Source: a virus
Taxonomy: Duplodnaviria; Caudoviricetes
Virus record (IMG/VR): IMGVR_UViG_3300005077_000001
Location: 128,001 to 192,000 of that record
Reading direction: 5' to 3' (one strand)
Length of the DNA: 64,000 bases
Each line of letters begins with the position of its first letter. Positions within the stretch are counted from its first letter, which is position 1. A model generated the notes under the pieces. It saw only the letters and a program-made list of their open reading frames with translations, was not told the origin of the DNA and ran no database searches. A program made the position numbers and the translations under genes. Shown in pieces: positions 3-20,787 of the stretch.

Positions 3-3000
3 TTTGAACAACTAGCTCGTCAATTGTATGTGTTAAAAGAGACAAATTGGGGATTAGACTATATTTCTTATCAAGTAGGAATGGGTAAATTTCCTGGTTC
101 ACTAGAACGAGCTAGAATGGATGAATCAACAGGTATGCTTCTACCTGGGTTAGGTACTCCAGGTATGAATTATACCCCAATAATGGAATCTAGAGCATCT
201 GGCTATGACGAGTTTGGAAATGTGAAATACGAAGACGTACCTCAACCAATGCAGCCGGGAAGCAGGTTATGGCAAGAAGCTATTTTACATCCTGGGAAAG
301 CATCCTACTATAATTGGCTTGCTAAGGAAGAACAAACTAAAGCATTACAAGATAGAGAAGATCAGAAATTAGAGCAACAAAAAGGTATAGCAAAGCAAGC
401 TCAGACATCCATTGTAGAAGCTCTTTATGAGCCATCTCTTCCTGAAGGATTTAGAGAAGTACTAAATAAACAGAGATCTAAATTAGAAGAAGATTTGAGA
501 AGAGCAAGTGAAATAGAAGAAGTTGGGCCTGATAATATTTTGAAAAGGAGAGGCTTTAAATCTTTAAATGATCTTAAGGGTTTATCAGATGCCATAAAAA
601 ATGCACTTAAAGCCGAAGATAGAAAATTAGAAGCTACTTATATATGGATGCCTATAGTAGATGCTATTAGAGATTTACATGGTGCACTAACAGGTGAAAG
701 ACCTGAAGGAAGCAAAGAAGAACAAAGAATGCGCGCATTCTACAATAATCCAGAACAATATTATTATTCAAAAGCAGCACAACTAAGCCAGCATTATATG
801 GGACAAGAAGGTACAAGTGTAATAGAAAATACTAATTTAACTAATACTTTATCCTCTATAGAAAGTAAACCTTACAGTATACCTGTTGGTCAATATGCGG
901 GTTATCAAAGCAAGTTAGGTTCAAGAGATACTAATGAGATATTAAAATCTATATTAGAGGTGTTAATAGGGTGTTGCAGAGAAGGTAAAGTTGGTTCTGG
1001 GAGATCATCAGGAACATCTGATACAGGAAAAGAAAGATCGCCTATAAGCCAAGATTCAGGCAGCGCATCTGGGAGTGCAGGTGTACAAACTTTTGACTAT
1101 GGTACTCCAGATTATCAAAAACTAGTTCCAGTAGGAAATACTGCCTATTCTGTTGGCTCATCCACCACTAAATCTTCTACTTCTGCCGGTTCTGGATCAG
1201 TTCAGTCTTGGGTAAAAAGTGATGGTACAGTTGTGGGAGTACCAAAAACCCAAGTAGATGCAATGTCCTATTTGAAACATAGAGGCTATCCTGATGAGAA
1301 ATTAGATGACATTGCTGAAAGATATAAACGTCCTTTACCTATAGGAGATTATTCTACCGATAGTGTTATGATGGCGGCATCTAGAGCTTATGCTAGTACT
1401 GGAAAGTACTTTAGGCCTAGTGAAGCCTATAATAGTGATTTTGATTGGAGAGTTAGACAAGAAGGTAGTCTTCTTGATATTGGAATATCTAGACTTAGCG
1501 ATAATAGGTTCCTATATTCTGATATTAAAGCTCAGATGGAATCTGGTAAAGGAGCTGGTTGGCTTGATTCAGAATCTAGATTAGCTCTAATATTAGCGCA
1601 TGCTCCTTCTCTTAACATAGGGGGCAGACAGACTGTAATAGGGGAGTCTAATCCTTTAAGTATGGCGTTTGTTAATCTCTCTAAAGCACGTATGGATCAA
1701 ACTGTTGCCCATGAATTATTTGGACATGGTATGGAGACTTTAGGTGCAGCTGAATTACGTGGGGAACAAGGTATTTCAATTGGGGCGACACCACGAGTTG
1801 AGTATCTATCGAAAGTATTAGAATTGATAAAATCTCAAGTAGGTGAAGCTCCATTTAGAACAATTACTAATCAACTAATTAAAGATCCTCAGTTATATCC
1901 TGATTTATTCAAAGGGCAAGGTAAAGAAATAGAAGATGCCTATGCTGCTTATGTGAATAGATATCCTCGTGGGAATGTTCCTACTTTAGAACTTCTAAAG
2001 ATGCAAGAGAAAGCAAATAAACTCCCTCTAGACTTATCTCCTAATTCTTCTAATTGGTCTCGTTTGACCGAATATATGGCAATGTTTGCTGAAGGAGAAA
2101 ATACTCCTTATGGAATACCTACTGAAACTTGGCTTCGTGTGGTACGTAATGTTTCGCCTAGACATTTCGAAGGAGTAGATAAGTTCCTATCTTCTAGATT
2201 TGCTAATGATAATCTATCTGATTCTGAATTAATGAAAGAATATAGAATTGCAATTAATAAAATTAAATCAGAAGTTTATACCCCTGCTCATTTAGTAGAA
2301 CAAAAAGAAGTCACACAACCAGTTGTTAGCCCAATTGATAAAACGTTAGCTTCAATTGGAAGAATTCCAGATTTAAATTGGAAAGTATTTTCTGATGAAT
2401 TTAAAGAACGAAATAAGATAGGAATGGGTGACAAACTAACCAAACTATTTAATAATGTAGGCGATAGTATTAAAAAAGTTGTGTTAGGAGATGATACAAA
2501 AGTAGCTTTACAGAAATTTCAAGGTGTTGTAGGAGCAGTAGAAGTTGAAGAAAATAAGTTTACAAACGATTTATCAAAAGCTTTAGAATTAAGATCTAAC
2601 GTTATTTCTCAAGTCCAAGAAAGTATAGGCTTAATAAAAAGCAAACGAACACCCTTAGTTAGTAGTCCCCTCATTAGAAAAGATTTGATTGGAGCAGGTC
2701 CAACTGGTGTTGAGTTACTAGAAAATGAAAGACAAACTGGAGAGTTAGTTTCCAACATTATAGCAAGCAATCTTTCTAAAGCCTATCAACTTCCTTTTAC
2801 GGATAGGACTAGAAAGCTATTATCTAATGAACAAATTGATATGGGGTATAAAAAAGATTTACTCAATCTTACTCCTACGCTACCTATGATAGAGGAAAAT
2901 CAAAAAGACGAATATAAAAATAAATTGTTTATTCCTATAATGAAATCTCCATACTCTGAATTAGCTAGAAAATTTTCCAATGAGGCACAAGCACACCCTG

Positions 3001-6000
3001 AAGTAACTTCAGAAGCCATACCATTAAGAAATGAAGTATTTTCTATCACAAAAGAAATGGCTGGTACTGGACCTACTGATGTTTCCTTGGATACAAATGA
3101 ACCTGTAGACTACACATCTCCAGCAGGAGTAATACCTTTTGTATCTACTCAAGGATATCAACGGACTTTACCATCCTCAAATCTTCCTTTTATGATGGGG
3201 CTATTTAGAGGAAGAACTAATGAGCCTTTTAAATTTGATGGAGGGTCATCTTTATTACCAGGTGTTGATAGACGTGTAATGTTACCAGAAATTAAGGATA
3301 AATATCCTTCAATGCTTAAAGCTTTTACTAATATGCAATCTCCTATATACCATTATAAGGGTATAGCTAAATGGAATGAAGGAAAACCATATATCAATAT
3401 ATATAATTCTGATAAGATATCGCTAGAAGAATTTTTAAAAAGGGCTAAACACGAGATAAACCATTTAGTATTATATAGATTATACACTTCTCTAAATAAA
3501 GAAGAAAGAGATTATTTAAAAACAGAATTGGAAACTACACCTTTCTCAAAAGATTTTCTTCCAGACATAGTTGATATGGTAATAAAAGGAGCTGGTGGAT
3601 TTAAAATAGGAAAAGAGTTATTAGCCATGTCCACTGAACGAGGATTAATGTCTGATAGTCCTATATTAAGAAGATTACAAGAAATCACATTATCGATTTA
3701 TAAAAAACATGAAGCAGAATTAAAAGATGTTCATAAGAAAACTATGTCTGGCTCTTCTTCTTTGTTTGATTTATCAACAGCAAAATATATATTAGAAGAT
3801 ATTAAATCAGATCCTTTAAAACAATCTTTGGGCGCAGGTGCCGAAGGTAAGATATATACAAGTCCTAAATACCAACATTTAGCTGTAAAGGAATATGCTC
3901 AACCAATATTTGGATATCAAGATTGGTTAGATCGTGGAAATGAAATAATGCAGAGATTGCACGGTACGTCTCTATTTCCAGAAACATCTTTAAATTATGA
4001 TGATAAAAAAGGCGTTTTTATAGAAATTATGGAACGGTTACATGGAGAAACTGTGCATAATTCTGTTGGTCAATCAGGTTTTAATAAGTATGAGGTACTA
4101 AAGGATTATAAACAAAAAATTTATGAAATGTTGAAACGTAAAGTATTTCCAGTAGATTCTCATCTTAATAATATATTTTTGGAAAGTTCATCTAAAAAAC
4201 AGAAATTTATAGACTTAGGATCTTTAGATTTAGGAGAAAATGTTGAATATATAAATGAAATTTTAAAAGACATAGGAGTTAATCAATATTCTAATTACTT
4301 AACTAATGATCACTCAGCTAAAATAGAGCAATCAAAAATAGCAATAGAAGCTTATGCTGGGCCTGTTGTTGATATTCAAAAAAAAATGACGGCTGGTAAT
4401 AAAAAGATTTTAAAAGAGATTTCGATTCCAAATTTGGAAAGATTAATTCCTCTTTTTAAGAATAAAACACTAAAAGACATGTTTCAAAATGCTTTAGATA
4501 CAGCTAAACAATATGCTGGGTCTCCTTCACTCTTAAAAGGTCCAAATGATTTTCCAACTTTCTTAAGCGGTCTACATCCAGGAATGGCCCCTGAACAAGC
4601 CATTGATGCAGCTATGGCGGCTAACAAACAATCTATTGAATACTTAGGTGGCCCAGAAAAAGCGGCGGGTTTCTTAGAAGGGTTTAAAACTCCATTATTA
4701 GAAGAAACACAAAAGAAAATAAGAGATATTATGAGAGGAGAATTTGGTGGTTCTTCCTCACTAACTAGTCATTTTATGAATAGTTTACGAAGGATGCCGC
4801 AGTCTTATGAGGCTGTTAAATCTCTTCATTCTGGGGTTAGAAACTTAGGTCTTCAAAACCAAGTTAATCTATTTGGTGGTGGAGTAAGAGATATTTTAAG
4901 AGGCGAAACACCAAATGATTATGATGTACAAGTTAGAAGCCAAGAAGCATTGGATCTATTAAGAAGTAAAATGCCTTGGGATCTTTATAAAGTCAATGAA
5001 GCTTTTGATGTTAAATCTTATATGCTTCCTACAAGGAGAGAGTTTTTATCTACATTAGTGAATGAGCTTATAAAGCATACTTTTTTAAGCAAAACAGTAG
5101 GAAGAGCACAAACAGCACATCAAGTAACACAAGATTTAAATACACTTTTAGGCAAAGATATTAAGAGAGAAGTTTTAGATAGATTTGGAGGTAGTTCTTC
5201 TTTATTTGATATGTCTCCTGATTTTAAAATAGATTTAAGTAAACCTATAATTGATATACCAAAGATTCCTAAGATACCTAGAATACCAAAAACAGGGTAC
5301 TATCCTAAAGGTAATTTAGATACCTATTATGATTCTATATTTGCAACTCCAGAAGAAAAACGAAGTATATCTTGGAATGAAAGATTCAATGTAGATTCAC
5401 TAGTTCAAGGACCATTTGAAAACCTATATGATGACATAATGCGTGATAAATATGCTCCTAGAACCCGTCCAAGTATAAATTTTAGAAATTTATTTAGTGC
5501 TCCTCAATTTAGAAATATATTTTCTAATTTAAAAGATAGTGGAAGTGTATTTTTTGGTGGTACTGGGAAAGCTCAAAGTACACAAGTGGAATTAAAAACA
5601 TCTAAAGATATAGAAAGATGGTTAAGACAATTCACTGAAGCTGAAGTAATGCAAGTTGCACAAGAAAGCCATAGATTAACTGGGGATTTAGCAGGTCGTC
5701 AAGCTCCTACACAAGAAACTGCAAGGGATTATATACTTAATATACTAAACGATATTGCTCAACGAGAAGGTGGTAAACTATTAGCTGGGACTGGAATAGC
5801 TAAGAAATTCTTACAAATTATTGCTCCTGATCTAACTCCTTCGTTATTTACTGGTCAAACTTCAGAAGGTAGTATCAGAAGAGGCCATAGCTTTGGAAGA
5901 CCTAGTGCCACTTTCGGAGGAGGTAGAGTTTCTATTACTGAAAGTGTTGCTGGAACAGGTGCGGAGAAACATGAATTTGGAGAAGCACTTTCTGATGTAG

Positions 6001-9000
6001 CTATCCAATTATTACATCAGCGTTTTGAAACCGGTACTACTTCAAAAGAGCAACTAGCTTATGAAGATTTAATGCCACTAATAGAGAAGTCTGCACCTAA
6101 AACTGCACAAGAAATAAAGGATCAAATGGAACGTAAACTGGCATATCCTACGGAAGGTGAAAAGTTTAGTGAAGTTTTAGCGGATATTATGGGGCAACAT
6201 CAAGAAAAGTTGGTAGGTAATCTAATATTAAAAAACAATATTACTCCTGAAGAATTCATGGATATACTAAAGCCTACTGGAAAAGAAAGTGGTTATGAGG
6301 AATTCATTACTAAAGAAGCTTGGCATAAAGTATTGCAAGAGCGTTATTATGAAACACCCAGAGGGGAGGGAGAAGGTGCTATGCCAGAACTCCCACGTGG
6401 GTATAAGTTAGAAAAAGGGGTTGGTAGATTAGGATATCGTACAGCAGGAGCGGCAGAAAGTTTACTCCATGTTCCAATGATTGGTAGCCCATTGTCTTTA
6501 GTAAGTGCTGCATCCAAACTAACAGAAGGAACTAGATTTAGTTCTCCTTTCCAAATAGCAGAAGAAGCAATGATGACTATGCGTGGTCCACTCGGTATGG
6601 CTGCTAGATTTCCTTTTGGTATGGCGGGTATCTTTGCTGGTTCTGCGTTAGGAAAAGGACAAGAACTAGGAGAGAAATTAAATATTAACCCTCTAACTGG
6701 CACTCTACTTGCTTCACCAGAAGAATTATTAAATTTTCAATTATTTAATCTTGGAAGCCAAGCTGAGTTCTTTGGAAAAACACCTTTATCTAAAATTGGA
6801 AAGCCTATTGGTCCTACTTGGATGCACGGATGGGGAGGAAATTTATCACCAGAATTACAGGTGAAAAGAGCAATAGCTGAAGCGGGAACACTTAGAGGAG
6901 GAGCAGCTTCCCTGCTTAAAACGGGTGGTAGCTTAGTAAAAGGTACTGTAGCAATGGAAGCTCTTAGTCCTGTTGGGGAATCTATTTTTGGTTATATTAA
7001 TGAAAGATACGGAAAAGAAATAGATGAGAAATTAAAAGGAATAATGGGGGAAGATACTTATAAAAATTTTGCTTTAACTACGAGTGGTATAGCTAGACAG
7101 TTTTCTTACATATTTAGTAAAGTAGGAGAAGCTGCAACTAGTGTTCCTGGGGGAGAGTTAGCTAGCTTCGCTATTAGCGGAATAAGAACCAACATGAGTC
7201 GTTTAATAAGTGACAGAATAGATACAAAAGCAATAAAATCCGCTAAAGAAAATATTAGAAGCTTAGAACAACAAATGCAAGATTTTCCTACATTTAAACC
7301 TTTCTATGAACAACAAATACAAGAAAAACAACTTAATATTGAAGCGTCTGGTCGATCTATGGGGGATAGGTTATTAGAAAGGATGATGGGGCAGAGGTTT
7401 GGAGAAGGAGCTACTAGCACAAGGGTTGAGGATATACAACAAAGAATTGACTGGATGAAAAAAGCTTTAGCAGGAGGAACATTAGAAACTAAACCATCTA
7501 TCCCATTTGATTTGGGTCCTCTAAACTTCATAAATGATTTACTACCAAAACCTGAATTAGATGATAAGCGTAAATGGGAAGAAGTAATACCTGAAGGTGC
7601 CCGCAAACAATTATTAGAGAGGGAAATAAAAAAATTAGAAGCTCAAATGCAAACTCCAACTGCTATTGGAAATTTACCTAATATTAATGATTTTATGTAC
7701 GAAAAAACAGAAAAAATTGTTAATATGAGAAAAGAAAGAATGGATTTAGAAGATGAATTAAATAAGCTTATTGGCGAAGATCCAATGGGCGGCCAAACGG
7801 GCCCAGCCAGAGCTGGTATTAGAAATAAAATAGCAGATTTAGACAAAAGAATAAATCAAGAAGTTCAAGTAACTGATAATTATTATAAATTAATAACTGA
7901 GGCACAAAAAGCACAAGTCTCTTCTACACAACCGCAGATTCTGGCTGAACCGGCACCTGCCCAATTAGAACCTGGTACTGAAGTTAAGCCACCAAAAGAA
8001 AAAGTAATGATGCCTGGTATTTTAGGAGATTTGATTAAACATAAATATGCACCACAAATTGTAGCATTAGTTGGTATGATTCCTAAACCAAAAGTTCCAG
8101 TTAAAACATTAGCTGATACTCCAAAAGAAGAGATAGAAAAAGCTTTAGAACTTGCTAAATCTGAACGAGGTAAAGCTTATAACGATTACTATAATTCCCA
8201 AGAGTATGAAAAAAATAAGGAATTGATGAATGATATCCTTAATTCTAAACCTGGGTCAAAAGAATGGCGTGAAGCGTCAGAGAGGTATAAACACTACACT
8301 ACTGAAACTACATCTCATCTAAATCTTAAAGAATCAAGAGTATTTGAATTAGAAAAAGAATTACAAAAAAGGGATGAAAAGGCAACTGAGGTAAGAAAAA
8401 GGTTAAAAGATAGAGAGAAAGCAATTAGTGATGAGAATAGTGAGATAGAGAAAAAGATAAGATTCATTTCTAAAGATAGTAGGGTTAGTGAATACCCACA
8501 AGCTGATTACTTTAAAAATAGAATTGATACAACAACAGAAGATATAGAAAAAAGAAGAGATAAGAACCGAGCATTGTTGGCTGAATATGCCTATAATTTA
8601 AATCAACCCGGATTTGAGGCAAACGCTACTAAAAGTGAAGATGTTCTAAATGAAAAAACTTGGAATCGTGAATACGGAACATATGAACCTGTGCGTATGC
8701 CTAAAGCTGTACCGTTTATTAAGCCATTTGATCCGTATGAAGCAGAACGTGCTCAGTTAAATATGTGGGGGTATACTCCTTCACAATTATATAAAAAGAC
8801 TCATCCTAAAGAACGAACTCCGTTGAGATTACCTGGAATGGGATTTGGAGTAGTGTTTACTGCTGGTGGAGCTAGAGAAGAAGGTTCTGGTGGAGCTTGG
8901 GATTTAGGCAGCTCTTTTATGTCTGATCAATCAGATTATAGAAATGCTGGTTTTGGATATCCAAAAAGAGAAATGGATGATAGAACAATAGGTGCTTTAA

Positions 9001-10997
9001 GTCAAGCAGAAAAGGCTAGACGAGAGTATATGGGGCTCTTAATTAGGGCACATACCCAATTTGATTCAACGGGCAGTAAAGGTTCATTCCCAGCAGGAGT
9101 ACAAAAATTATTAGATGAAGCAAAACTTAAGCAGCGTTATTATGAACGTAGAGCATCTCAATTTGAGCACAACGAAAGAGCAGTAAGAAACGGAGAAATG
9201 GTAAATGGTAAGTCTGTTACCATGGATACCCCCGGCTATATGGGAATGAATGGTGATTGGATTTATAAAGAACACCCTGATGATGCTAAACTTCGTATGG
9301 ACTGGGAAGAAAGAGATAGAATAGCTAGGAATAGATATGATCAAGAACATTTCCTTGATGGAACTAATATTTTAGGCGGGGCTCCTAATGAAACAATGAA
9401 AGAAAATGCGTATTTGATGGGGTTACCACATGATAAACAACAAGCTTTACAGCAATTAAAACAATATGGATACTCCCAAGATAAATTAAATCAGATTGGT
9501 GGAATATTACAATCAGGGAAATCGCTAAAACAGGTGGGGTTAGAAGGGTTAGCTCAGAATCAACAAGCAATTTTGGATTTTTGGAAAAATGCTAAACCTA
9601 CGAGCATGATGTCTCAAGAAGAAATAGATAGAAAACGAAATGAAGCGGAACTGACAATGCAACAATATAATGATAAATTAGGACTTTCACAAAATAACCG
9701 GGGTTGGGATGATAAGGCGTATGGAAGATACATAGCTCAAAATGCAAGACCAGAAGTTAGTCATTTGATGGTTGATTATTATAGAAAAAGGCATGGGATG
9801 ATCAATGCAAGAGAAGATTCTTTTGAAAATTCAAGAGAACAATGGGAATATCGTAGAAAAGAAGTCGGAGATTTATCTGATGAGGAGAGAAATGCAAGAG
9901 ATCAAAGGTTAAGAGAAGGAATACCTAATTCTGGAGATTTTGATAGAGATACTTGGGAAGAAACTAAACGGATGCAGGATTACTATTTTAGTAAATGGAG
10001 AAAAAACAATAAAGATAAAGCTAATTGGTTTATAAGCACCGAACAGAAAAACCCTGCTATGTTTAGAACTGGTTATATCCCTGCTCAAGAATACGATCCT
10101 ATATTTAGTAAAGGTGGTGGTTTATATTCATATTATCCGAGCCCTTATGGTAAAGGAGTTGATACTGCGGTAATGCAAAATACATACGCAAATAGAACAG
10201 GTATGATGTCTGCTAATTATGGATATACTTATAAACCTAATGCAAATGAGACAGTGACTGTTTCTCCAATGTATTGGTCTAATGAACAACAACCAGTAAA
10301 TCCAATGGGACTCCCTGACTACGGATATGTGTCTGGTGTATCAAAAGGAACTGTTGGTGAACAATGGGATCGCATGAATGCTGCCGGTGCTTTTAGAAAT
10401 GATAGTGAACGATTTGGTGCCTTAGCTGGTATATATAAACAACAAGGTTATTCAGATACCGATATAAATAAAAAAATATATGAACAATTTGGTGAAAAAG
10501 GGCTAAAGGGGCTAGAACAATCACAAGCTACAAAAGTATTTGTTACCAATTTTCCTGATGATGTTAACGAAAGAATGCGTCAAGATTTTGGTGACCTACT
10601 TAATAAAGTAGCACAAAGTATTTCTTCATTACAAGAAACAATTAGCAGTAGTCTAAAAATAGAGTTTCCTCAAGATATGAGTGTGAGAGTTAATAACTTC
10701 AATGATTTAAATTTTGGTGGAGCTGGTGCTGCGGGTAGTAATGAGAAACTGTCTGCAGATGTAGATCAAATTAGATCTGATTTAGAATTAGTTAGAGCAC
10801 AACTTCCTAATGTATCTACAGATTTCCTATCAAATATTGAGGGTACTTTAACTAATCTGACTGATTCTATTACTAGAGAAATAACGAGAGTGGATGCTTT
10901 AGAGACAGTTATAGGAAAGCTTGATGCTAAAAGTAAAGATCTAAATAACAGACAAAATGACACTGAATTATTCCCAAAAGGAGAGGCACCTTTTTAA
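3..10997 (+). CDS. Giant tape-measure-like / polyvalent virion protein (5'-truncated, >3657 aa) with zincin metallopeptidase, protein-kinase-like and nucleotidyltransferase motifs
   Basis: Frame is open from base 3 (FEQLARQL...), so the true start lies upstream. Motifs: HELFGH (1710), HEINH (3450), GAGAEG/AVK/DSHLNN/DLG (3831-4220), GGGVRD...DYD (4875-4925), HEFGE (5970). Long charged helical stretches. Lies directly upstream of baseplate-hub-like genes, the usual tape-measure position. Confidence 0.65.
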   Translation, partial: FEQLARQLYVLKETNWGLDYISYQVGMGKFPGSLERARMDESTGMLLPGLGTPGMNYTPIMESRASGYDEFGNVKYEDVPQPMQPGSRLWQEAILHPGKASYYNWLAKEEQTKALQDREDQKLEQQKGIAKQAQTSIVEALYEPSLPEGFREVLNKQRSKLEEDLRRASEIEEVGPDNILKRRGFKSLNDLKGLSDAIKNALKAEDRKLEATYIWMPIVDAIRDLHGALTGERPEGSKEEQRMRAFYNNPEQYYYSKAAQLSQHYMGQEGTSVIENTNLTNTLSSIESKPYSIPVGQYAGYQSKLGSRDTNEILKSILEVLIGCCREGKVGSGRSSGTSDTGKERSPISQDSGSASGSAGVQTFDYGTPDYQKLVPVGNTAYSVGSSTTKSSTSAGSGSVQSWVKSDGTVVGVPKTQVDAMSYLKHRGYPDEKLDDIAERYKRPLPIGDYSTDSVMMAASRAYASTGKYFRPSEAYNSDFDWRVRQEGSLLDIGISRLSDNRFLYSDIKAQMESGKGAGWLDSESRLALILAHAPSLNIGGRQTVIGESNPLSMAFVNLSKARMDQTVAHELFGHGMETLGAAELRGEQGISIGATPRVEYLSKVLELIKSQVGEAPFRTITNQLIKDPQLYPDLFKGQGKEIEDAYAAYVNRYPRGNVPTLELLKMQEKANKLPLDLSPNSSNWSRLTEYMAMFAEGENTPYGIPTETWLRVVRNVSPRHFEGVDKFLSSRFANDNLSDSELMKEYRIAINKIKSEVYTPAHLVEQKEVTQPVVSPIDKTLASIGRIPDLNWKVFSDEFKERNKIGMGDKLTKLFNNVGDSIKKVVLGDDTKVALQKFQGVVGAVEVEENKFTNDLSKALELRSNVISQVQESIGLIKSKRTPLVSSPLIRKDLIGAGPTGVELLENERQTGELVSNIIASNLSKAYQLPFTDRTRKLLSNEQIDMGYKKDLLNLTPTLPMIEENQKDEYKNKLFIPIMKSPYSELARKFSNEAQAHPEVTSEAIPLRNEVFSITKEMAGTGPTDVSLDTNEPVDYTSPAGVIPFVSTQGYQRTLPSSNLPFMMGLFRGRTNEPFKFDGGSSLLPGVDRRVMLPEIKDKYPSMLKAFTNMQSPIYHYKGIAKWNEGKPYINIYNSDKISLEEFLKRAKHEINHLVLYRLYTSLNKEERDYLKTELETTPFSKDFLPDIVDMVIKGAGGFKIGKELLAMSTERGLMSDSPILRRLQEITLSIYKKHEAELKDVHKKTMSGSSSLFDLSTAKYILEDIKSDPLKQSLGAGAEGKIYTSPKYQHLAVKEYAQPIFGYQDWLDRGNEIMQRLHGTSLFPETSLNYDDKKGVFIEIMERLHGETVHNSVGQSGFNKYEVLKDYKQKIYEMLKRKVFPVDSHLNNIFLESSSKKQKFIDLGSLDLGENVEYINEILKDIGVNQYSNYLTNDHSAKIEQSKIAIEAYAGPVVDIQKKMTAGNKKILKEISIPNLERLIPLFKNKTLKDMFQNALDTAKQYAGSPSLLKGPNDFPTFLSGLHPGMAPEQAIDAAMAANKQSIEYLGGPEKAAGFLEGFKTPLLEETQKKIRDIMRGEFGGSSSLTSHFMNSLRRMPQSYEAVKSLHSGVRNLGLQNQVNLFGGGVRDILRGETPNDYDVQVRSQEALDLLRSKMPWDLYKVNEAFDVKSYMLPTRREFLSTLVNELIKHTFLSKTVGRAQTAHQVTQDLNTLLGKDIKREVLDRFGGSSSLFDMSPDFKIDLSKPIIDIPKIPKIPRIPKTGYYPKGNLDTYYDSIFATPEEKRSISWNERFNVDSLVQGPFENLYDDIMRDKYAPRTRPSINFRNLFSAPQFRNIFSNLKDSGSVFFGGTGKAQSTQVELKTSKDIERWLRQFTEAEVMQVAQESHRLTGDLAGRQAPTQETARDYILNILNDIAQREGGKLLAGTGIAKKFLQIIAPDLTPSLFTGQTSEGSIRRGHSFGRPSATFGGGRVSITESVAGTGAEKHEFGEALSDVAIQLLHQRFETGTTSKEQLAYEDLMPLIEKSAPKTAQEIKDQMERKLAYPTEGEKFSEVLADIMGQHQEKLVGNLILKNNITPEEFMDILKPTGKESGYEEFITKEAWHKVLQERYYETPRGEGEGAMPELPRGYKLEKGVGRLGYRTAGAAESLLHVPMIGSPLSLVSAASKLTEGTRFSSPFQIAEEAMMTMRGPLGMAARFPFGMAGIFAGSALGKGQELGEKLNINPLTGTLLASPEELLNFQLFNLGSQAEFFGKTPLSKIGKPIGPTWMHGWGGNLSPELQVKRAIAEAGTLRGGAASLLKTGGSLVKGTVAMEALSPVGESIFGYINERYGKEIDEKLKGIMGEDTYKNFALTTSGIARQFSYIFSKVGEAATSVPGGELASFAISGIRTNMSRLISDRIDTKAIKSAKENIRSLEQQMQDFPTFKPFYEQQIQEKQLNIEASGRSMGDRLLERMMGQRFGEGATSTRVEDIQQRIDWMKKALAGGTLETKPSIPFDLGPLNFINDLLPKPELDDKRKWEEVIPEGARKQLLEREIKKLEAQMQTPTAIGNLPNINDFMYEKTEKIVNMRKERMDLEDELNKLIGEDPMGGQTGPARAGIRNKIADLDKRINQEVQVTDNYYKLITEAQKAQVSSTQPQILAEPAPAQLEPGTEVKPPKEKVMMPGILGDLIKHKYAPQIVALVGMIPKPKVPVKTLADTPKEEIEKALELAKSERGKAYNDYYNSQEYEKNKELMNDILNSKPGSKEWREASERYKHYTTETTSHLNLKESRVFELEKELQKRDEKATEVRKRLKDREKAISDENSEIEKKIRFISKDSRVSEYPQADYFKNRIDTTTEDIEKRRDKNRALLAEYAYNLNQPGFEANATKSEDVLNEKTWNREYGTYEPVRMPKAVPFIKPFDPYEAERAQLNMWGYTPSQLYKKTHPKERTPLRLPGMGFGVVFTAGGAREEGSGGAWDLGSSFMSDQSDYRNAGFGYPKREMDDRTIGALSQAEKARREYMGLLIRAHTQFDSTGSKGSFPAGVQKLLDEAKLKQRYYERRASQFEHNERAVRNGEMVNGKSVTMDTPGYMGMNGDWIYKEHPDDAKLRMDWEERDRIARNRYDQEHFLDGTNILGGAPNETMKENAYLMGLPHDKQQALQQLKQYGYSQDKLNQIGGILQSGKSLKQVGLEGLAQNQQAILDFWKNAKPTSMMSQEEIDRKRNEAELTMQQYNDKLGLSQNNRGWDDKAYGRYIAQNARPEVSHLMVDYYRKRHGMINAREDSFENSREQWEYRRKEVGDLSDEERNARDQRLREGIPNSGDFDRDTWEETKRMQDYYFSKWRKNNKDKANWFISTEQKNPAMFRTGYIPAQEYDPIFSKGGGLYSYYPSPYGKGVDTAVMQNTYANRTGMMSANYGYTYKPNANETVTVSPMYWSNEQQPVNPMGLPDYGYVSGVSKGTVGEQWDRMNAAGAFRNDSERFGALAGIYKQQGYSDTDINKKIYEQFGEKGLKGLEQSQATKVFVTNFPDDVNERMRQDFGDLLNKVAQSISSLQETISSSLKIEFPQDMSVRVNNFNDLNFGGAGAAGSNEKLSADVDQIRSDLELVRAQLPNVSTDFLSNIEGTLTNLTDSITREITRVDALETVIGKLDAKSKDLNNRQNDTELFPKGEAPF

Positions 10998-11009: not shown

Positions 11010-13523
11010 ATGGCAACGGCAACACAAAATAATCCAGAAATATTTGGTAATCCATGTTTAACAAATAATTGGTCAAAAACTATACAAGCCTGTAGAGATT
11101 CAATGAAGTATGACAAAGACTTCATTGCTATAGATATACTTCGTACTTTTGATATATCTGTTAATATGAATTCTGTTTATGGCGATAATTCTCATGATTC
11201 ACTTAACAAAAATCAATATACTAATTTATGTCCACTAGATATTCAAACTCAAGATGCTTTTACAGTAATGAGAGCTTCTTTAGATGCTAAATTACTAAAT
11301 GGGGAATATTGGGAGGTATATTCTAATGAATTTGGTGAAGCCGAATTTGTATTAATATTGAAAGATAGTTCTCCTAATACCCATTTATGCAAATTACCTG
11401 AAATACGGTATTGTATTCCAGGTGCAAAAATGGATCAAATTACTGATTTAGTAATTGTAAGAGGGAATACTCCGATTCCTGAAATATCTTGTGGTGATAC
11501 TGAAATTATTGTATTATCAAAAGATCAACCCATAGTTGAAAATGTGTGTGAATTAGGAAATATATTTACTAAAAGACCCTTTAATTCTGCTGAATCAGCT
11601 ATAACTGCTCTTGGGGCTAAAATGGAATGGGGAATGTTAGCGGAATCAAGGGGTGGTTCGTATGTATCTCGCTCTTGTGATTTAGGTAAATTTAGGCAGT
11701 ACGGCACAATAGTATATCCAGAATATGATCGTAAGCAAGTTTTCAAAGATAACATAAGTGACCCAATAGAAATTGGTCCTTTTCAGCAGATTATAGGTTG
11801 GCTTATAGATATTGACTTTGGTAATTTTACATCTGAAGAATTACAACTGTACTATAATGTTAATTTCACTTCTGGTGCTACCGAAATACCTGTTAGGTTA
11901 AAAGATAGTGGACCTTTGGTAGGAAGTGTCTCTGCTCATGAACTTGAAAACTATTTTCCGTTAGAATGTGATTTATCTGTTTTAAATATGAATAGGGCTT
12001 GCATGACCCCTCAAGAATTATTAAAAGCTCATTTTGATGCTTATACACAATTGCAGGGGTGCTCTAACCCCCGTCAGGCTATATTACAAGGGGGTGGTAT
12101 TACTGGATACAATGGTGGGTACATAGTCCCTAATATGTATCAGTATGGTAAAATCCAATCTTGTTTAGATTTTAGTGATGCAAATAGATGGGGCTATCTA
12201 GGTTTTACGGAAAAATGTGGGGGAGACCCTGTTGAAAACATATACCAAAGTACAACACAGATAATAGCTACTGGATTTCCGTTGCGTAGTTGGTACTATG
12301 TGCATTCTTCTGCAGGTCAAGATCAGTATTTTTTTGGTATTCAAACTGAACACCAAACTATCCAATTAACAGAAGGGGAGCATTGGGTTGAGTTATCAGA
12401 GTTTCCTGGTTTGTATACATCTTTAGGTAAGGGAGCTTTTAGATACTATGGGTTAAGATTTAAAGCCCCACCCTCAGCTACTTATAGAGTTACTTATTCT
12501 AATGAGCATACTCCTAATACAGGCGGTTCTTTTGCTGCTGGAGGAGGTACTGATATGGGATGGCAAAATCCGTTTCATGCTTATTTAGGTATGTTTATAC
12601 GTTCTGGTATTGATATGCAAGATTTATCTATATTTTATCAACATGTTGCAGGTAATTATAGTGCTTATTATTTTACTGAGGGATGTTGGAACTACACCCC
12701 AGGAGGTTACCTAGCAGGAATAAACGATGGGTTATGGACTATAGATGAAGGTAGTTTATATGCTAAAGTAAATGTATCAAGACCTGGGATTCAGATTAGA
12801 ACAGCTGGAAAAGATGTAAGACCTTTATTGGAAGCCATTTCGATGAAAGTAAAACCTATTTTTCAAAATACCATGCAACAACCAGTTGCAGCTTGTGGTA
12901 ATAATTTTTGTCAAATAATAGATCCAGAAACTGGTTTATACGATAATGTATGGTGTACTAGAGAAGAACTAGATAGTGATGCAGAAAAATTAAGAGATGC
13001 TATGACTGGTATTACCTTAGAAGTAAACATCACTGCTTTATTCCCAACAGATACATCTTTAAATGGGTATAGAACTGCTGCGGAAGAATGTTTAAAAGTA
13101 GCACAAAATTTATATAATTATTATAATACTTTTAGAAATGAACCATATAAAGGATATACTTATATATGTGGTCCTCCTACAAATAAAGATGAAATACCAA
13201 GATTAGGTAAATGTGTGAGTACTCCTCATGGTATAAGAACTATAAATACGATCAATTATAATTATCAAGATGGTCAATCTTATACATTAAATATTGAAGC
13301 AGGCCCAGCAATGTTTTCTGCACAAGGTGTAGGTCAGCTATATAAAAAGCAAGTAGAAAATGTTACTATAACAGGTAGAGTGGAACAAGTATTAGATGGG
13401 GCTTTATATAAAGTTAATATCCCTAGATATGGAATAATTACAGCTTGGAATGCTGCTAAATGGCCGTGGGAAGTAGGGGATCAAGTACAAGTTGAACTAT
13501 ACAATGTTCCAAAGGAGGCTTAA
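11010..13523 (+). CDS. Putative tail/baseplate structural protein (837 aa)
   Basis: AAGGAG RBS upstream. Position between the TMP-like gene and the hub-like gene. C-terminus (ITGRVEQVLDGALYKVNI...WEVGDQVQV) resembles an OB-fold. Confidence 0.45.
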   Translation: MATATQNNPEIFGNPCLTNNWSKTIQACRDSMKYDKDFIAIDILRTFDISVNMNSVYGDNSHDSLNKNQYTNLCPLDIQTQDAFTVMRASLDAKLLNGEYWEVYSNEFGEAEFVLILKDSSPNTHLCKLPEIRYCIPGAKMDQITDLVIVRGNTPIPEISCGDTEIIVLSKDQPIVENVCELGNIFTKRPFNSAESAITALGAKMEWGMLAESRGGSYVSRSCDLGKFRQYGTIVYPEYDRKQVFKDNISDPIEIGPFQQIIGWLIDIDFGNFTSEELQLYYNVNFTSGATEIPVRLKDSGPLVGSVSAHELENYFPLECDLSVLNMNRACMTPQELLKAHFDAYTQLQGCSNPRQAILQGGGITGYNGGYIVPNMYQYGKIQSCLDFSDANRWGYLGFTEKCGGDPVENIYQSTTQIIATGFPLRSWYYVHSSAGQDQYFFGIQTEHQTIQLTEGEHWVELSEFPGLYTSLGKGAFRYYGLRFKAPPSATYRVTYSNEHTPNTGGSFAAGGGTDMGWQNPFHAYLGMFIRSGIDMQDLSIFYQHVAGNYSAYYFTEGCWNYTPGGYLAGINDGLWTIDEGSLYAKVNVSRPGIQIRTAGKDVRPLLEAISMKVKPIFQNTMQQPVAACGNNFCQIIDPETGLYDNVWCTREELDSDAEKLRDAMTGITLEVNITALFPTDTSLNGYRTAAEECLKVAQNLYNYYNTFRNEPYKGYTYICGPPTNKDEIPRLGKCVSTPHGIRTINTINYNYQDGQSYTLNIEAGPAMFSAQGVGQLYKKQVENVTITGRVEQVLDGALYKVNIPRYGIITAWNAAKWPWEVGDQVQVELYNVPKEA

Positions 13524-13703
13524 GTCATATTGACTAGCTTAAATCTTAATTGACTACGTTATTCAGGTTACAACACCTTGGGATGCTCCTCAAGTTCCAA
13601 GCTCTGTTGCTGTAAATTAAACAGTTCTAAGGAACAGTGTTTACAGTGTAAAAAGCCTCTATAACATTAGCGATGAGGCCCTAACCCGAAAGGAGAACGA
13701 AAC
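13524..13703 (+). ncRNA. IscB omega RNA scaffold
   Basis: Starts GTCA..TTGAC..CTACGTT directly upstream of IscB. Stem CTTGGGA(13577-83)/TTCCAAG(13595-601), whose loop CCTCA (13588-92) is complementary to TGAGG (13674-78), the conserved pseudoknot. Stem CTGTAAA(13610-16)/TTTACAG(13640-46). GTTAT/ATAAC long-range pairing. All match known omega RNA layout. Confidence 0.85.
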
Positions 13704-14927
13704 TTGAGAGTATTCGTTAAAAATCAAAGAAATAAACCATTAATGCCAACAACTCCGGCAAAAGCTAGAATTTTGCTAAAGCAAGGAAAAGCAAAGGTTG
13801 TAAAAAGAACCCCATTTACAATTCAATTACTTTATCCAACCGGAGAAACTAAACAAGAAATTACTTTAGGAGTAGATACTGGGTACAAATTCATTGGGCT
13901 TTCAGCAGTTTCTAAAAAAGAAGAATTATTTTCAGCTCAAGTAGAATTAAGAACAGATATTTCTAAATTACTTAAAGAGAGAAGAATGTATCGAAGGGCT
14001 AGAAGAGAAAGAAAAACTCGGTATCGTAAACCTAGATTTCTTAATCGTGCAAATGCAAGAAAAAAAGGACGATTGATGCCTTCAGTTCAACATAAATTAG
14101 ATTCTCATATCAAACTCGTGAACAAAGTTTCTGAATTATTACCTATTTCAAAAGTTCGAATGGAAATTGCAGCCTTTGACATTCAGAAAATAAAAAATCC
14201 TGAAATAAAAGGAAAAGGATATCAGAACGGAGAACAGAAAGGGTTTAGTAACACCAGAGAGTATGTTTTGTACAGAGACAGCCATAAATGTCAACTTTGT
14301 AAAGGAAAATCAAAAGACAAGATTTTGAATGTGCATCACATAATTTCAAGAATCGAGGGAGGAACTAACCAGCCCGACAACTTAATTACGTTGTGTAAAA
14401 CTTGTCACAGTGAATTTCATAAAGGCATAGTAGAATTAAAAGCAAAACCTAAAAAGAGTTTCAAAGCAGAAACTTTAATGTCTATAATAAGATGGAGAAT
14501 AATTGACCAACTTAAAGCACTGTATATAGATGTTGAAACTACTTACGGCTATGAAACCAAAGAAAAAAGACTAGAATCAGGGATAGAAAAATCTCACATT
14601 AACGATGCTTTTGTTATAGCAAACGGTTCAATACAGAAAAGGAATCAATCGTACCTAATAAAGCAAGTGCGAAAGCAAAATCGTAAACTATTTAAAGGAG
14701 CTAGGAGTCATATTAGAAATACTGCTCCACGATTTTTATTCGGATTTCAGAGATTTGATAAGGTGCTTTTTGAAGGAAATGAGTATTTCATATATGGTAG
14801 ACGAGTAATAGGTAGATTCAAGTTATTTTCTTTAGAATCTGGGATAATAAAAGAAGAACCTAGTTATAAAAGATTAAAATTACTTGAAACAAAAAATACG
14901 TTTGTTATTAATTTAATAAATAGATAA
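13704..14927 (+). CDS. iscB: IscB RNA-guided endonuclease (PLMP/RRXRR + split RuvC + HNH)
   Basis: N-terminal PLMP motif, RuvC-I LGVDTG, Arg-rich bridge helix RRMYRRARR, RuvC-II MEIAAFD, HNH CQLC...VHHI...GGTN..DNLITLCKTCH, RuvC-III SHINDA. TTG start after AGGAG. Confidence 0.93.
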   Translation: MRVFVKNQRNKPLMPTTPAKARILLKQGKAKVVKRTPFTIQLLYPTGETKQEITLGVDTGYKFIGLSAVSKKEELFSAQVELRTDISKLLKERRMYRRARRERKTRYRKPRFLNRANARKKGRLMPSVQHKLDSHIKLVNKVSELLPISKVRMEIAAFDIQKIKNPEIKGKGYQNGEQKGFSNTREYVLYRDSHKCQLCKGKSKDKILNVHHIISRIEGGTNQPDNLITLCKTCHSEFHKGIVELKAKPKKSFKAETLMSIIRWRIIDQLKALYIDVETTYGYETKEKRLESGIEKSHINDAFVIANGSIQKRNQSYLIKQVRKQNRKLFKGARSHIRNTAPRFLFGFQRFDKVLFEGNEYFIYGRRVIGRFKLFSLESGIIKEEPSYKRLKLLETKNTFVINLINR

Positions 14928-14953
14928 CTATACTTAAAAAAGGAATTACAAGG

Positions 14954-16033
14954 ATGACTGATTGCCCAACTCTAAGATTAGATTTAATACGAGCAAGAAT
15001 AGAAGTTGCTGGTATGAGTTTTGGAACTCCAGGATGTGGATACGATACTCATGGGTATATTAACTCTTTTAGTTTAAACCAAAGTAGAGGTCAAGTAATT
15101 TCTACTTTAAATTGTCAACTAGAAATTTGGATTAGAAATCCTATTTCTAGCATAATAAATACTTCTGATGGATTAGGACCTACATTAACTTTGTGGGCTG
15201 GAGTAGAAGGGGGAATGCCTCAAATATTTACTGGATATGTAAAATCTGTCAAAGGAGATCCGCATTTTAATGATTCGAGAAAATATTATTTATCTATAAC
15301 TGCTGAAGATGTTTTTACAAAAATGCGTAATAAAAAGTATAGTAGAAGATTTAAAACTTCTGATTCTGCATATGCATTAATTAGAGGAGGTCAAAGAAAA
15401 GGTGGTGGTAGAATGACACAATTACGTAGAGTTCCCACTAAAGCTATACGATATAAGCAGGTTGCTGGTACTGTTCAGGATACCCATTCCCCATTACAAG
15501 CTACCCCAGACCCGAAAGGATGGACTCCTAATGGTAGAAATCCACAATCAGATACAGTAAAAGATAGATTAGCAGGTCAGTATGTTTATACTTTTCATCC
15601 AAGCACCGTATCCTTATTACCTGGGCAAAGTGCCATATTAACTTTGTACGATGAAGAAGGGAATCCGCGACTAGTAGGTTTACAAAAAGATAATCGAGGA
15701 GATTTTGCTGTTACAATAGACGATAATAGAAGATGCTCTTGCTTTGTTAATCCAAATAACTATGGTACTACTAATAGTAGTAATGTTGATGCAGCTTCTG
15801 GAACAGCTAAACCAGGAGAATTAAGAGTTATTACCTCAGAGATGTCAGATGTGTATTCCGATGAAACAAGAGGAAGGTTCATAATCACAATGAGAGATTG
15901 GTATCCTTTTAGAGGGGTTTTCGTAGACCCAGCAACTAAGGCACTTGCTAAAATAGATGCCATGACTGTTGCTCCACATGGACACGATAACTTAGCAACT
16001 GGTGGTCCCGCAGGAGGTATAGTAGCATATTAA
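14954..16033 (+). CDS. Baseplate hub-like protein (gpD/gp27-like fold)
   Basis: Motifs LTLWAG...QIFTGYVKSV and YLSITAEDV resemble hub proteins. Structural operon context. Confidence 0.55.
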   Translation: MTDCPTLRLDLIRARIEVAGMSFGTPGCGYDTHGYINSFSLNQSRGQVISTLNCQLEIWIRNPISSIINTSDGLGPTLTLWAGVEGGMPQIFTGYVKSVKGDPHFNDSRKYYLSITAEDVFTKMRNKKYSRRFKTSDSAYALIRGGQRKGGGRMTQLRRVPTKAIRYKQVAGTVQDTHSPLQATPDPKGWTPNGRNPQSDTVKDRLAGQYVYTFHPSTVSLLPGQSAILTLYDEEGNPRLVGLQKDNRGDFAVTIDDNRRCSCFVNPNNYGTTNSSNVDAASGTAKPGELRVITSEMSDVYSDETRGRFIITMRDWYPFRGVFVDPATKALAKIDAMTVAPHGHDNLATGGPAGGIVAY

Positions 16034-17889: not shown

Positions 17890-18264
17890 ATGTCCGAGTC
17901 ATGTAGTCTTAATAAAAGCTATAAATTACGTTGTTCTCAACCAGTTCTTGTATGTTCAGACAATACACAGCAGTGTGAATGTGCTCCAGGGAGAAGAACT
18001 ACTATGGTGATATCCTCATTTGGTTTAGACATTATAAATGGGCGAACTATACAAGCTACAGATAATTTACCATTATCTATAGATTTTATTGGTATCTCTC
18101 CTGATGGAACTTTAGAGTCTGCTAATTTTAATGCAACTCAATATTTAACTAAAGATGGGGATATAGTATGGAACGGTCAAGAAATTCCACCTACTCAACA
18201 TGAATTAGAATTAGAAATGCCAGGTATTGAAGTAGGAAATTTAGGAGATTTATTGGGAGGCTAA
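17890..18264 (+). CDS. Hypothetical structural protein
   Basis: 124-aa ORF abutting both neighbours (TAA-ATG). Confidence 0.45.
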   Translation: MSESCSLNKSYKLRCSQPVLVCSDNTQQCECAPGRRTTMVISSFGLDIINGRTIQATDNLPLSIDFIGISPDGTLESANFNATQYLTKDGDIVWNGQEIPPTQHELELEMPGIEVGNLGDLLGG

Positions 18265-18570
18265 ATGAAACCATTATTAGATGCATTTGATACTCCTAGA
18301 ATAGACTGTTCCTCCATAAACATATCTTATGCAGCTACAGGTTTGGTTACACTTACGTTTAAAGTCTATGTAAAGAAAGATAAAGGTTTACCTTATACGA
18401 AAGAAAATACACCCAAATTTAGTTTATGTATAAGTAAAGAAAGAAGGTTTAATGGGTTGGTTACTTCACAACAAGCAAGTGCTTCTATAGAATTTAATAA
18501 TGTTGTTGAATGGTCAGTTAGTGCATTCGGATTCGTATGTTCAGATTCCAATTGCGGAGCTAGATGTTAA
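18265..18570 (+). CDS. Hypothetical structural protein
   Basis: 101-aa ORF with GGAGG RBS, translationally coupled. Confidence 0.45.
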   Translation: MKPLLDAFDTPRIDCSSINISYAATGLVTLTFKVYVKKDKGLPYTKENTPKFSLCISKERRFNGLVTSQQASASIEFNNVVEWSVSAFGFVCSDSNCGARC

Positions 18571-19782: not shown

Positions 19783-20787
19783 ATGGAAAGAAGACGTTGG
19801 ACAAAAGAAGAGGATATAACATTAACTGATTTATATAATTCTAATACTCCTAGATCCATTATATCTAGAATACTTGGTAAAGGAGTTTCTGCTATAAAAT
19901 CTAGAGCTATGATTTTAGGATTATCTAGAAATAATATTTTATATTGGACTGAAGATGAAATTAATTTATTACTTAATTTAAACAAAGAACGAATTTCGAT
20001 TAAAGAAATGTCAGAAAAATTAAATAAGACATCCAATTCAATTAGATGCCAGCTACAAAGATTAAAATTGAAAACTAATGAAGAGGATTTATTAGAAATT
20101 AAAAATGGGAAAGTGCATAAGAATAATAGGTACGGAAGAGCAAATAAAAAATATTATTTTAATGAAAATTATTTTGAAAAGATAGACTCTCACCAAAAAG
20201 CATATTGGTATGGTTTTTTATGGGCAGATGGGTTTGTATATAGAAGGAGAGAGAATTACGTTACAGGGCTTTTATTAAAAGATCCTGAACCAGTATATCA
20301 GTTTAAAGCAGACCTTGGTTCAGATCATCGCATATACATAAATGAAAATAGTTTTTCTATTAGACTTACTTCAGAGAAAATGTTCAAAGACTTGGAAAAA
20401 TTAAATATTATACCTAGAAAAACCTATGCTAACCTAAGACCAAAGATTACAGAAAACTATGTTAATAGTTTCATTTTGGGGATGTTTGATGGGGACGGTA
20501 GTATTAGTATTAATAGGCGATTATCCTTAAATAATTATTATTGCACGCATTATAATCTTAGTATAGCTAATAGTAAAGCTACTTGTTACTGGTTAAAAGA
20601 TGTTATTAATAGTAATTTGAATATATATAGCTATGTACAATCAAGAAAAGGGACTGTTGGTTGTGTATGGAGAACTAATAGCAAAAAGAGTATTTCTAAA
20701 TTTGCTGATTGGGCTTATAAAGATGTTGATTTCAAGTTGGAAAGAAAGTACAACAAATTTATTCAGTCAGGTATTCTGGATAAATAA
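19783..20787 (+). CDS. Free-standing LAGLIDADG homing endonuclease with two Myb/SANT-like repeats
   Basis: AYWYGFLWADG and SFILGMFDGDG motifs. Repeats RWTKEED, YWTEDE. C-terminus LERKYNKFIQSGILDK resembles that of 16795..17889. Confidence 0.85.
   Translation: MERRRWTKEEDITLTDLYNSNTPRSIISRILGKGVSAIKSRAMILGLSRNNILYWTEDEINLLLNLNKERISIKEMSEKLNKTSNSIRCQLQRLKLKTNEEDLLEIKNGKVHKNNRYGRANKKYYFNENYFEKIDSHQKAYWYGFLWADGFVYRRRENYVTGLLLKDPEPVYQFKADLGSDHRIYINENSFSIRLTSEKMFKDLEKLNIIPRKTYANLRPKITENYVNSFILGMFDGDGSISINRRLSLNNYYCTHYNLSIANSKATCYWLKDVINSNLNIYSYVQSRKGTVGCVWRTNSKKSISKFADWAYKDVDFKLERKYNKFIQSGILDK

Follow-up and report, generated by a model that had tools for sequence, protein, structure and literature searches.

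IscB proteins are RNA-guided nucleases and the transposon ancestors of Cas9; the TAM reported for AwaIscB is ATGA. GstIscB resides in elements of the ISGst family, which are IS605-type and non-autonomous, in Geobacillus stearothermophilus; it cleaves the donor joint, its omega RNA is bounded by the right end of the element, and its measured TAM is TTCAT, 5' of the left end, corresponding to ATGAA in the iscB orientation (Meers et al. 2023, bioRxiv 10.1101/2023.03.14.532601). These elements are multicopy, with hairpins still present at both ends, and a genomic TnpA mobilises them. For OgeuIscB, the reported TAM is NWRRNA and not ATGA (PMC12660989). Over 16% of HEARO-encoding fragments are classed as viral (Goltsman et al. 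2022, PMC9755519). Selfish nuclease genes are also found between conserved phage genes, as exemplified by T4 Seg/Mob, which are expected to cut the nuclease-free allele in co-infection and to be copied by the ensuing repair (PMC13565253); marker exclusion in phages is a known effect of free-standing endonuclease genes of the LAGLIDADG kind (reviewed in PMC13565253).

In the window, the 64,000-nt stretch of phage DNA analysed here, an IscB-omega RNA element occupies positions 13524-14953, between the stop codon of a gene for an 837-aa protein and the start codon of a gene for a 359-aa protein. With a probability of about three in four, it is a non-autonomous ISC/IS605-type OMEGA element in a jumbo-phage structural operon, lodged at a stop/start junction and persisting by RNA-guided homing. 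The locus consists of the following features:

11010-13523, + strand: upstream phage gene, 837 aa (open reading frame list)
13504-13523, + strand: predicted guide-donor flank, directly 5' of HEARO position 1
13524-13703, + strand: omega RNA (HEARO) scaffold (RF02033 match at 13524-13685)
13704-14927, + strand: iscB gene, 407 aa (Pfam RRXRR and HNH; solved IscB structures)
14928-14953, + strand: 3' tail of the element, 26 nt (fold, L002 tail alignment, Shine-Dalgarno (SD) survey)
14954-14957, + strand: predicted TAM ATGA, formed by the start codon of the 359-aa gene and the first base of its second codon
14954-16033, + strand: downstream phage gene, 359 aa (homologues P0002 and P0003)

The omega RNA lies directly upstream of iscB on the same strand. 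Rfam HEARO (RF02033) matches 13524-13685 over the full model (positions 1-211) with 117.6 bits (E 4.9e-25), 35 bits above the gathering score of 83. Model position 1 falls on 13524, so that the scaffold opens with GTCA immediately after the TAA stop of the 837-aa ORF (13521-23), as the original prediction had placed it. The first stem, at 13524-13534 (GTCATATTGAC), has a loop reduced to 3 nt, these 3 nt replacing a 44-nt consensus insert of RF02033; the corresponding loop spans 33-62 nt in 80 relatives. The RNA is unusually short, about 180 nt, beside a compact 407-aa IscB, and its Rfam match covers 162 nt, compared with at least 198 nt matched in 134 relatives (by Rfam or our own profile). 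The collapse of the first stem might impair RNA function.

The iscB gene begins with a TTG codon, preceded 7 nt upstream by AGGAG. Its product carries PF14239 (RRXRR) at residues 3-176 (1e-65) and PF01844 (HNH) at residues 196-240 (1.4e-11), and solved IscB structures align with it at E 1e-45 to 1e-48, with OgeuIscB (7xht) matching the ORF at 13704-14927 with E 7.5e-46. With OgeuIscB (7xht, 7utn) it shares the PLMP/RuvC/bridge/HNH layout, aligned catalytic motifs and a HEARO-type omega RNA. At 407 aa against 496 aa, it is about 90 aa shorter, and the alignment is confined to the N-terminal and central parts. No RuvC or HNH residue is missing: D58 (within GVDTG), E154, H211/H212 and H298/D301 align with the corresponding OgeuIscB-type motifs. 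The ORF is full length, its alignment to relatives running to within 5 residues of the end. No IscB relative above 64% identity was found in viral or metagenome contigs.

The limits of the element are defined by comparison with its relatives. When near-identical relative elements from different contexts are compared, their similarity ends exactly 5' of GTCA, at HEARO position 1, which places the 5' boundary of this copy at 13523/13524. On the 3' side, the same relatives diverge just after ATGA(A). Of 93 distinct clade contexts, 86 carry ATGA as the motif beyond the 3' end; at the fifth position, 62 have A and 19 have T. In this copy, ATGA likewise adjoins the 3' end, where the 359-aa ORF opens with the codon pair ATGACT from 14954. 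In the relatives examined, a hairpin and a spacer precede ATGA; these hairpins were identified by an arm-motif rule, which was preferred to global MFE folding and generic palindrome searching because those located them unreliably. The tail at 14928-14953 has no such subterminal hairpin (its DNA fold has z -0.8/-1.0, whereas the 3' end of relative L017 reaches -16.4 kcal/mol and z -4.3). The missing hairpin leaves this copy without an independent marker of its 3' boundary, whose placement at 14953 draws on the clade TAM rule together with a modest end-to-end alignment of the tail with that of the closest relative, L002, just before the ATGA of L002 (p about 0.015).

The same tail admits a second interpretation, in which 14928-14953 is native intergenic DNA carrying the downstream gene's own SD, the element ends at 14927 and the TAM is not a start codon. 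The lack of a hairpin, a 3' end defined in this copy only by comparison with relatives and an SD-like AAGGA at good spacing fit this arrangement. No element sequence would then follow the iscB stop, in contrast to the relatives examined, and the motif following the boundary would be CTAT rather than the ATGA of the clade. The colinear L002 tail also speaks against it, as do the 1-2 nt that separate the flanking genes in both of their IscB-free relatives. We consider this interpretation improbable and take 13524-14953 as the element.

The element thus sits exactly between a stop codon and the next start codon, so the predicted target comprises the RBS, stop and start codon of an element-free phage. 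The 20 nt preceding the scaffold (13504-13523) read ATGTTCCAAAGGAGGCTTAA, and their 16-nt core at 13508-13523, TCCAAAGGAGGCTTAA, includes the putative ancestral SD of the downstream gene, AAGGAGG (13512-18), and the stop TAA (13521-23). Rejoining the flanks yields a reconstructed insertion junction of ...AAGGAGGCTTAA|ATGACT.... The element ends have no direct repeats, consistent with the absence of target duplication. Similar junctions occur natively in the operon: GGAGGCTAAATGA at 18256-68 has its stop at 18262-64 and its ATG at 18265, and a TAA directly abuts an ATG at 17887-92. The coordinates and strings quoted in the original prediction are all present in the sequence. A guide supplied by the 5' flank would be expected from the established IscB architecture exemplified by GstIscB. 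As in GstIscB, the omega RNA sits upstream of iscB with the transposon end as its limit. The guide would likewise derive from the flank, and the rejoined flanks would be the target, with the TAM on its 3' side: predicted as ATGA here, and ATGAA for GstIscB in the iscB orientation. Boundary homology and the clade ATGA motif likewise suggest that cleavage would depend on a 3' TAM and a flank-derived guide. Indirect evidence gives good support to the reconstruction, with RBS and stop as putative guide and the start codon as TAM. A second target within the phage's own genome was considered and ruled out: the window has no other match to the 16-nt guide sequence even when 3 mismatches are allowed, and the 256-kb genome holds no credible second guide-plus-TAM site.

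The flanking genes show how the junction appears when IscB is not there. Only two relatives of these genes were found, both distant (about 54% and 37-39% amino acid identity) and both without IscB. The 837-aa protein is 54% identical to its L082 homologue, the two finishing at the same residue (...NVPKE[A/V]*), and the alignments of the 359-aa protein with P0002 (53%) and P0003 (37%) start at M1. The stop-to-start gap is 2 nt in L082 and 1 nt in the other relative. Together with the boundaries of the relatives, the clade ATGA motif and the ATGAA of GstIscB, these gaps support, if indirectly, the earlier proposals that the element was inserted at a stop/start junction and that its TAM is ATGA-like. 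The L082 junction reads AAGGAGG-TA-TAG-TA-ATG. It retains the SD and ATG of this phage but differs next to the TAM, where TAG replaces TAA, a spacer of 2 nt is present and ATGG stands in place of ATGA. The description of the target as hard to mutate is overstated. Since the TAM-proximal bases and the TAM both differ, the site in L082, the nearest relative, would escape cleavage.

The exact empty allele is predicted to be 1430 bp shorter and to read ...GGCTTAAATGACT.... The joined sequence that the original prediction put forward for metagenome searches did not turn up: metagenome contigs scanned for the exact pattern, with a gap of 0-12 nt permitted from TAA to ATG, yielded no exact element-free allele. 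Exact joined-site scans of viral contigs for the empty alleles of the relatives found nothing, and look-ups with the relatives' downstream proteins always led to occupied sites or to contigs broken inside iscB. The 359-aa protein has no relative in viral contigs, and neither the 5-kb region nor the downstream gene had any sequencing run listed.

Neither the 837-aa gene product nor the 359-aa protein has a Pfam or PHROG match. Atlas feature and structure leads connect the 359-aa protein with the GpP/gp44, gpD and YQBQ families (0.91-0.93, leads only), and its AlphaFold (AF2) model is unusable (pLDDT 35). The protein is possibly baseplate-hub-like; the earlier designations 'hub gene' and 'essential tail operon' have these weak leads as their sole basis.

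Both features that IS200/IS605 elements present at their ends are absent from this copy: there is no 3' hairpin (z about -1), and the 5' stem loop is 3 nt. A Y1 TnpA (PF01797) is absent from the 256-kb, 97%-complete record, the same search matching in control genomes; a host-encoded TnpA is possible. The element matches its own genome once. Unlike the GstIscB elements, it is therefore a single copy with both hairpins lost, in a phage without TnpA. With both TnpA-binding hairpins gone and no TnpA in the phage, TnpA-driven transposition is no longer available, and RNA-guided homing alone could still move the element, leaving homing and vertical descent as its sole remaining routes.

Vertical descent alone would make the element a stranded, decaying passenger, brought in once by a TnpA that the host supplied in trans, since stripped of its ends and no longer active. 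The lost hairpins, the missing TnpA and the single copy agree with such a history, as do the lack of any relative above 64% identity and of any empty allele or run. An inert passenger is harder to reconcile with a full-length 407-aa ORF retaining every RuvC and HNH residue, or with an omega RNA scoring so far over the Rfam gathering score. The composition is also fully matched to the phage (GC 31.5% in the iscB gene, 33% in the phage), and this match without decay indicates long residence with selection on the nuclease and the RNA. An inert passenger is thus unlikely, and homing is preferred.

Expression of the element appears to be tied to the operon. Promoter-like and terminator-like sites in the region are no commoner than in shuffles, and without an excess of promoter-like sites an internal promoter is not indicated. 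Dependence on transcription from the upstream gene would be a further feature in common with GstIscB. The SD survey of the operon locates an SD-like AAGGA in the tail at 14940-44, 9 nt before the downstream ATG, and the element tail is proposed to supply a substitute ribosome-binding site through which the downstream gene is still translated.

From the observed anatomy, the boundaries placed by homology, the clade TAM and the empty architecture of the relatives, we infer guide usage, cleavage and homing as follows. Read-through transcription from the upstream gene would produce the omega RNA, whose 5' guide would be the last 16-20 nt of that gene, comprising the SD and stop. The IscB-omega RNA complex would recognise a match to the guide only if ATGA follows, as it does on an element-free genome. 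On the occupied genome, GTCA comes after the guide match instead, which would spare the phage from cutting itself. An element-free co-infecting genome would be cut, and recombinational repair from the occupied genome would copy the element in, the whole process amounting to non-restorative RNA-guided homing. Whether the insert is present would thereby distinguish self from non-self, just as it does in intron homing. The arrangement resembles that of T4 Seg/Mob and of the two free-standing LAGLIDADG-type endonuclease genes in the same operon, in that a selfish nuclease gene sits between conserved phage genes. Unlike these endonucleases, in which the protein itself performs recognition, the element would use a flank-derived RNA guide and a motif of 4-5 nt.

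The retained nuclease and lost transposition machinery, along with the two LAGLIDADG-type genes, would also suit a nuclease domesticated chiefly to attack competing related phages (marker exclusion), or to serve the phage in some other way, rather than for spread of the element. Mechanistically, cutting the empty allele is the same act as homing, so the two cannot be separated from sequence alone. The guide still corresponds to the plain insertion flank, as in ordinary elements, and domestication appears very improbable beside homing of a selfish element.

Insertion at start codons extends beyond this copy. About 46% of clade insertion sites fall at start codons, compared with 10% of other ATGA sites, and SDs are enriched at the insertion sites as well. 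These figures suggest that start-codon insertion is a clade-wide rule and not an isolated case. In comparison with the viral-contig IscB/HEARO elements described previously (PMC9755519), the start-codon pattern is quantified here clade-wide, and the ends of this copy are collapsed. We tentatively propose, as a possibility somewhat short of probable, that the ATGA(A/T) TAM serves as a start-codon address. Elements would fill the SD-ATG gap in dense phage and microbial operons and draw their guides from translation signals; some lineages, including this one, would have shed their ends, gained an SD in the tail and come to live TnpA-free as homing endonuclease genes.

In conclusion, this copy is a neat instance of a selfish element of an already known kind, with no new system or mechanism. 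Its natural target, a guide of 16-20 nt followed by ATGA, is fully specified as predicted here for a compact 407-aa IscB. It illustrates how OMEGA elements may persist in transposase-free phages, by occupying the stop/SD/start junction, the one spot that a dense operon tolerates, and, as predicted, by targeting the same junction in competitors. The start-codon numbers bear on how TAM specificity and insertion-site survival may shape each other.

The insertion is an IscB-omega RNA element of the ordinary phage-borne OMEGA kind, present once in a viral record of 256 kb judged 97% complete. The strings and coordinates quoted in the original prediction all match the sequence, and the native junctions at 17887-92 and 18256-68 are among them. 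The element and its borders are arranged as follows.

13521-13523, plus strand: TAA stop of the upstream 837-aa ORF (ORF list)
13524-13685, plus strand: omega RNA (HEARO), full-length Rfam match, 117.6 bits (gathering score 83), E 4.9e-25
13704-14927, plus strand: iscB, 407 aa; TTG start with AGGAG 7 nt upstream; Pfam RRXRR (1e-65) and HNH
14928-14953, plus strand: AT-rich tail of 26 bases between the iscB stop and ATGACT
From 14954, plus strand: downstream 359-aa ORF, beginning ATGACT (ORF list)

The 407-aa protein matches solved IscBs, OgeuIscB among them, at E about 1e-46, and its RuvC and HNH residues are complete (D58, E154, H211/H212, H298/D301). We fetched 160 IscB relatives from viral and metagenome contigs, none above 64% identity. 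In the GenBank phage collection, the region matches only Clostridium phage c-st (65.7% DNA identity across the iscB part, at AP008983.1 134372-134967), whose gene carries no annotation beyond 'HNH endonuclease' or 'conserved hypothetical protein'.

The left end coincides with the end of the upstream gene. HEARO position 1, a conserved GTCA in both Rfam and our own nhmmer profile of the relatives, falls at 13524, the first base past the TAA. Where near-identical elements occupy differing contexts (contigs L017, L021, L023, L024, L026, L037 and L038; a second set of L015, L019 and L025), similarity ends exactly 5' of this GTCA. On the 3' side of both sets, the elements are still identical across a GC-rich hairpin, a short spacer and ATGA(A), and diverge only beyond it. 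In L023 and L024, two contigs from one sample, the element is common and the right flanks are homologous beside unrelated left flanks, and hence different guides, a pattern that points to recombination at the element or through it. Further HEARO copies, complete or partial, lie near the main element in L020 (about 5037-5256), L062 (about 1801-2035), L130 (about 649-708), L134 (about 32-124) and L138 (about 4102-4199), possibly as second elements or as solo omega RNAs.

Across the relatives, a motif rule served to find the 3' arm of the hairpin, and the ATG nearest beyond that arm was taken, so that the ATG is imposed and the bases after it are free. Of 93 distinct contexts, 86 have A as the next base; at position 5, 62 have A and 19 have T. 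In agreement with this motif, GstIscB has been shown by experiment to cleave rejoined flanks and to require the TAM TTCAT 5' of its left end; read along iscB, this TAM is ATGAA 3' of the target (Meers et al. 2023, bioRxiv 10.1101/2023.03.14.532601). Some insertion sites are not gene starts, with ORFs of 2 codons at L017 and L038; the need for ATGA is therefore the element's own and does not come only from the gene. By the clade rule, the well-supported predicted empty site reads AAGGAGGCTTAA followed directly by ATGACT, in which the ancestral SD would stand 5 nt from the ATG. A single-base deletion separates the native junction at 18256-18268, GGAGGCTAA before ATGA, from the reconstructed target, GGAGGCTTAA before ATGA; the junction is out of register with the guide and hence not a predicted off-target.

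The uninterrupted arrangement is seen in relatives. Among 5.8 billion proteins, the 359-aa protein has only two, both on contigs without IscB. In one case, L082, the two flanking genes have homologues (54% identity upstream, 53% downstream) lying 2 nt apart, as AAGGAGG-TA-TAG-TA-ATG, and the upstream protein ends in the same residue as the 837-aa protein; on the other, a JGI contig, the gap is 1 nt. About 1430 bp are thus extra in this phage. Homology, the clade TAM and this empty architecture together uphold the original reconstruction, in which the guide is the RBS and stop of the upstream gene and the TAM is the start codon of the downstream gene. The metagenome search it proposed for the joined site returned no match to the exact empty allele (exact-pattern scan of metagenome contigs), and searching the 359-aa protein against viral contigs found no co-circulating relative of this phage.

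We infer the following steps, from transcription and guide use through self-sparing and cutting to copying in. The element region has no excess of promoter-like sites. Because the guide must lie outside the element, the omega RNA would arise by read-through transcription of the upstream gene; Meers et al. inferred such dependence from orientation bias (bioRxiv 10.1101/2023.03.14.532601). The guide would be the final 16-20 nt of the 837-aa gene. Where the element is present, GTCA and not ATGA comes after this sequence, so the phage would spare itself. An element-free genome, offering both the guide match and ATGA, would be cut, and repair templated by the occupied genome would copy the element in, a route termed transposon non-restorative homing in a 2026 review (PMC13565253).

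The expectation that this target is hard to mutate holds for the SD and ATG, which are conserved with L082, but not for the TAM-proximal bases, which differ at an Ala wobble position, in stop codon choice and in the 2-nt spacer; the TAM on L082 is ATGG. Up to position 13 from the motif, HEARO nucleases accept few mismatches (Goltsman et al. 2022, PMC9755519), which makes silent change look like an easy escape. The hub-gene label given to the 359-aa protein retains weak leads to baseplate-hub families, but the flanking genes carry no further functional assignment. Directly upstream of the operon, a 3657-aa ORF (24-10997) has no Pfam match at E 0.001 or better. The same operon holds two free-standing Myb-repeat and LAGLIDADG-type endonuclease genes (16681/16795-17889 and 19783-20787; PHROG 4645 'endonuclease' at 6e-48 and 2e-48; Pfam LAGLIDADG_3), which brings the selfish nuclease genes, iscB included, to three in about 7 kb. 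Since the ORF from 16681 overlaps the preceding gene by 100 nt, its true start is probably the ATG at 16795.

This copy departs from its relatives at both ends. The first stem of the omega RNA has a 3-nt loop (GTCATATTGAC), against 44 nt in the Rfam consensus and 33-62 nt in 80 relatives, and the matched RNA spans 162 nt, or 180 nt if counted up to the start of iscB; in 134 relatives the matched length is 198 nt or more. The 3' end folds into no significant hairpin (z about -1), compared with -16.4 kcal/mol and z -4.3 in L017, and the IscB C terminus is shorter by a few residues, in step with the missing hairpin. From their position in IS200/IS605-type ends, we take the two end hairpins to be TnpA substrates; the 256-kb record yields no Y1 TnpA. 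The GC of the element (31.5%, GC3 0.21) matches that of the phage (33%, GC3 about 0.18), which, with an intact gene and RNA, speaks for an element long resident and kept under selection. The 26-nt tail and that of the closest relative, L002, which directly precedes the L002 ATGA, align along their whole length (shuffling p about 0.015). The tail of this copy contains AAGGA 9 nt ahead of the downstream ATG, and because other operon genes have comparable SD motifs, this could be a stand-in for the displaced AAGGAGG. The element is instructive for its state: transposon ends lost, a putative replacement SD gained, and a predicted target made of translation signals.

We rejoined the flanks of 71 relatives and scored the ATG of each TAM as start-codon-like when the downstream ORF had at least 50 codons and an in-frame stop lay no more than 20 codons upstream. 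Restricting the set to sites that have ATGA and a short spacer leaves 64. Because some dependence among contexts remains, all p-values are nominal.

Features of insertion sites and of other ATGA in the same flanks
Start-codon-like, 71 sites: 45%; other ATGA 9.8%; nominal p 2e-14
SD-like motif 4-17 nt upstream (in the guide), 71 sites: 41%; other ATGA 14%; nominal p 2e-8
Start-codon-like, 64 sites: 47%; other ATGA 10%; nominal p 5e-14
SD-like motif, 64 sites: 44%; other ATGA 13.5%; nominal p 3e-9
Stop of upstream gene within 25 nt, 64 sites: 28%; other ATGA 5%; nominal p 3e-9

Several TAM ATGs are the called starts of DNA ligase, RNA ligase, LigD and SecY genes. In L176-L178 (Methanoperedens assemblies, archaeal genome; about 544-2004), an IscB relative lies between genes for Ku and a LigD-type ligase, with iscB stop and ligase ATG overlapping as ATGA; the TAM thereby serves as stop of iscB and start of ligD at once. 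The Logan contigs with SecY (L185-L187) start about 90-100 nt upstream of SecY, within the IscB tail; such assembly breaks inside the element are as expected for repeated sequence. We read the enrichment as survivorship: in a dense genome, ATGA motifs at gene starts are where insertion is tolerated. Placement at a start codon is not unique to this element but a general pattern among the insertion sites of the clade.
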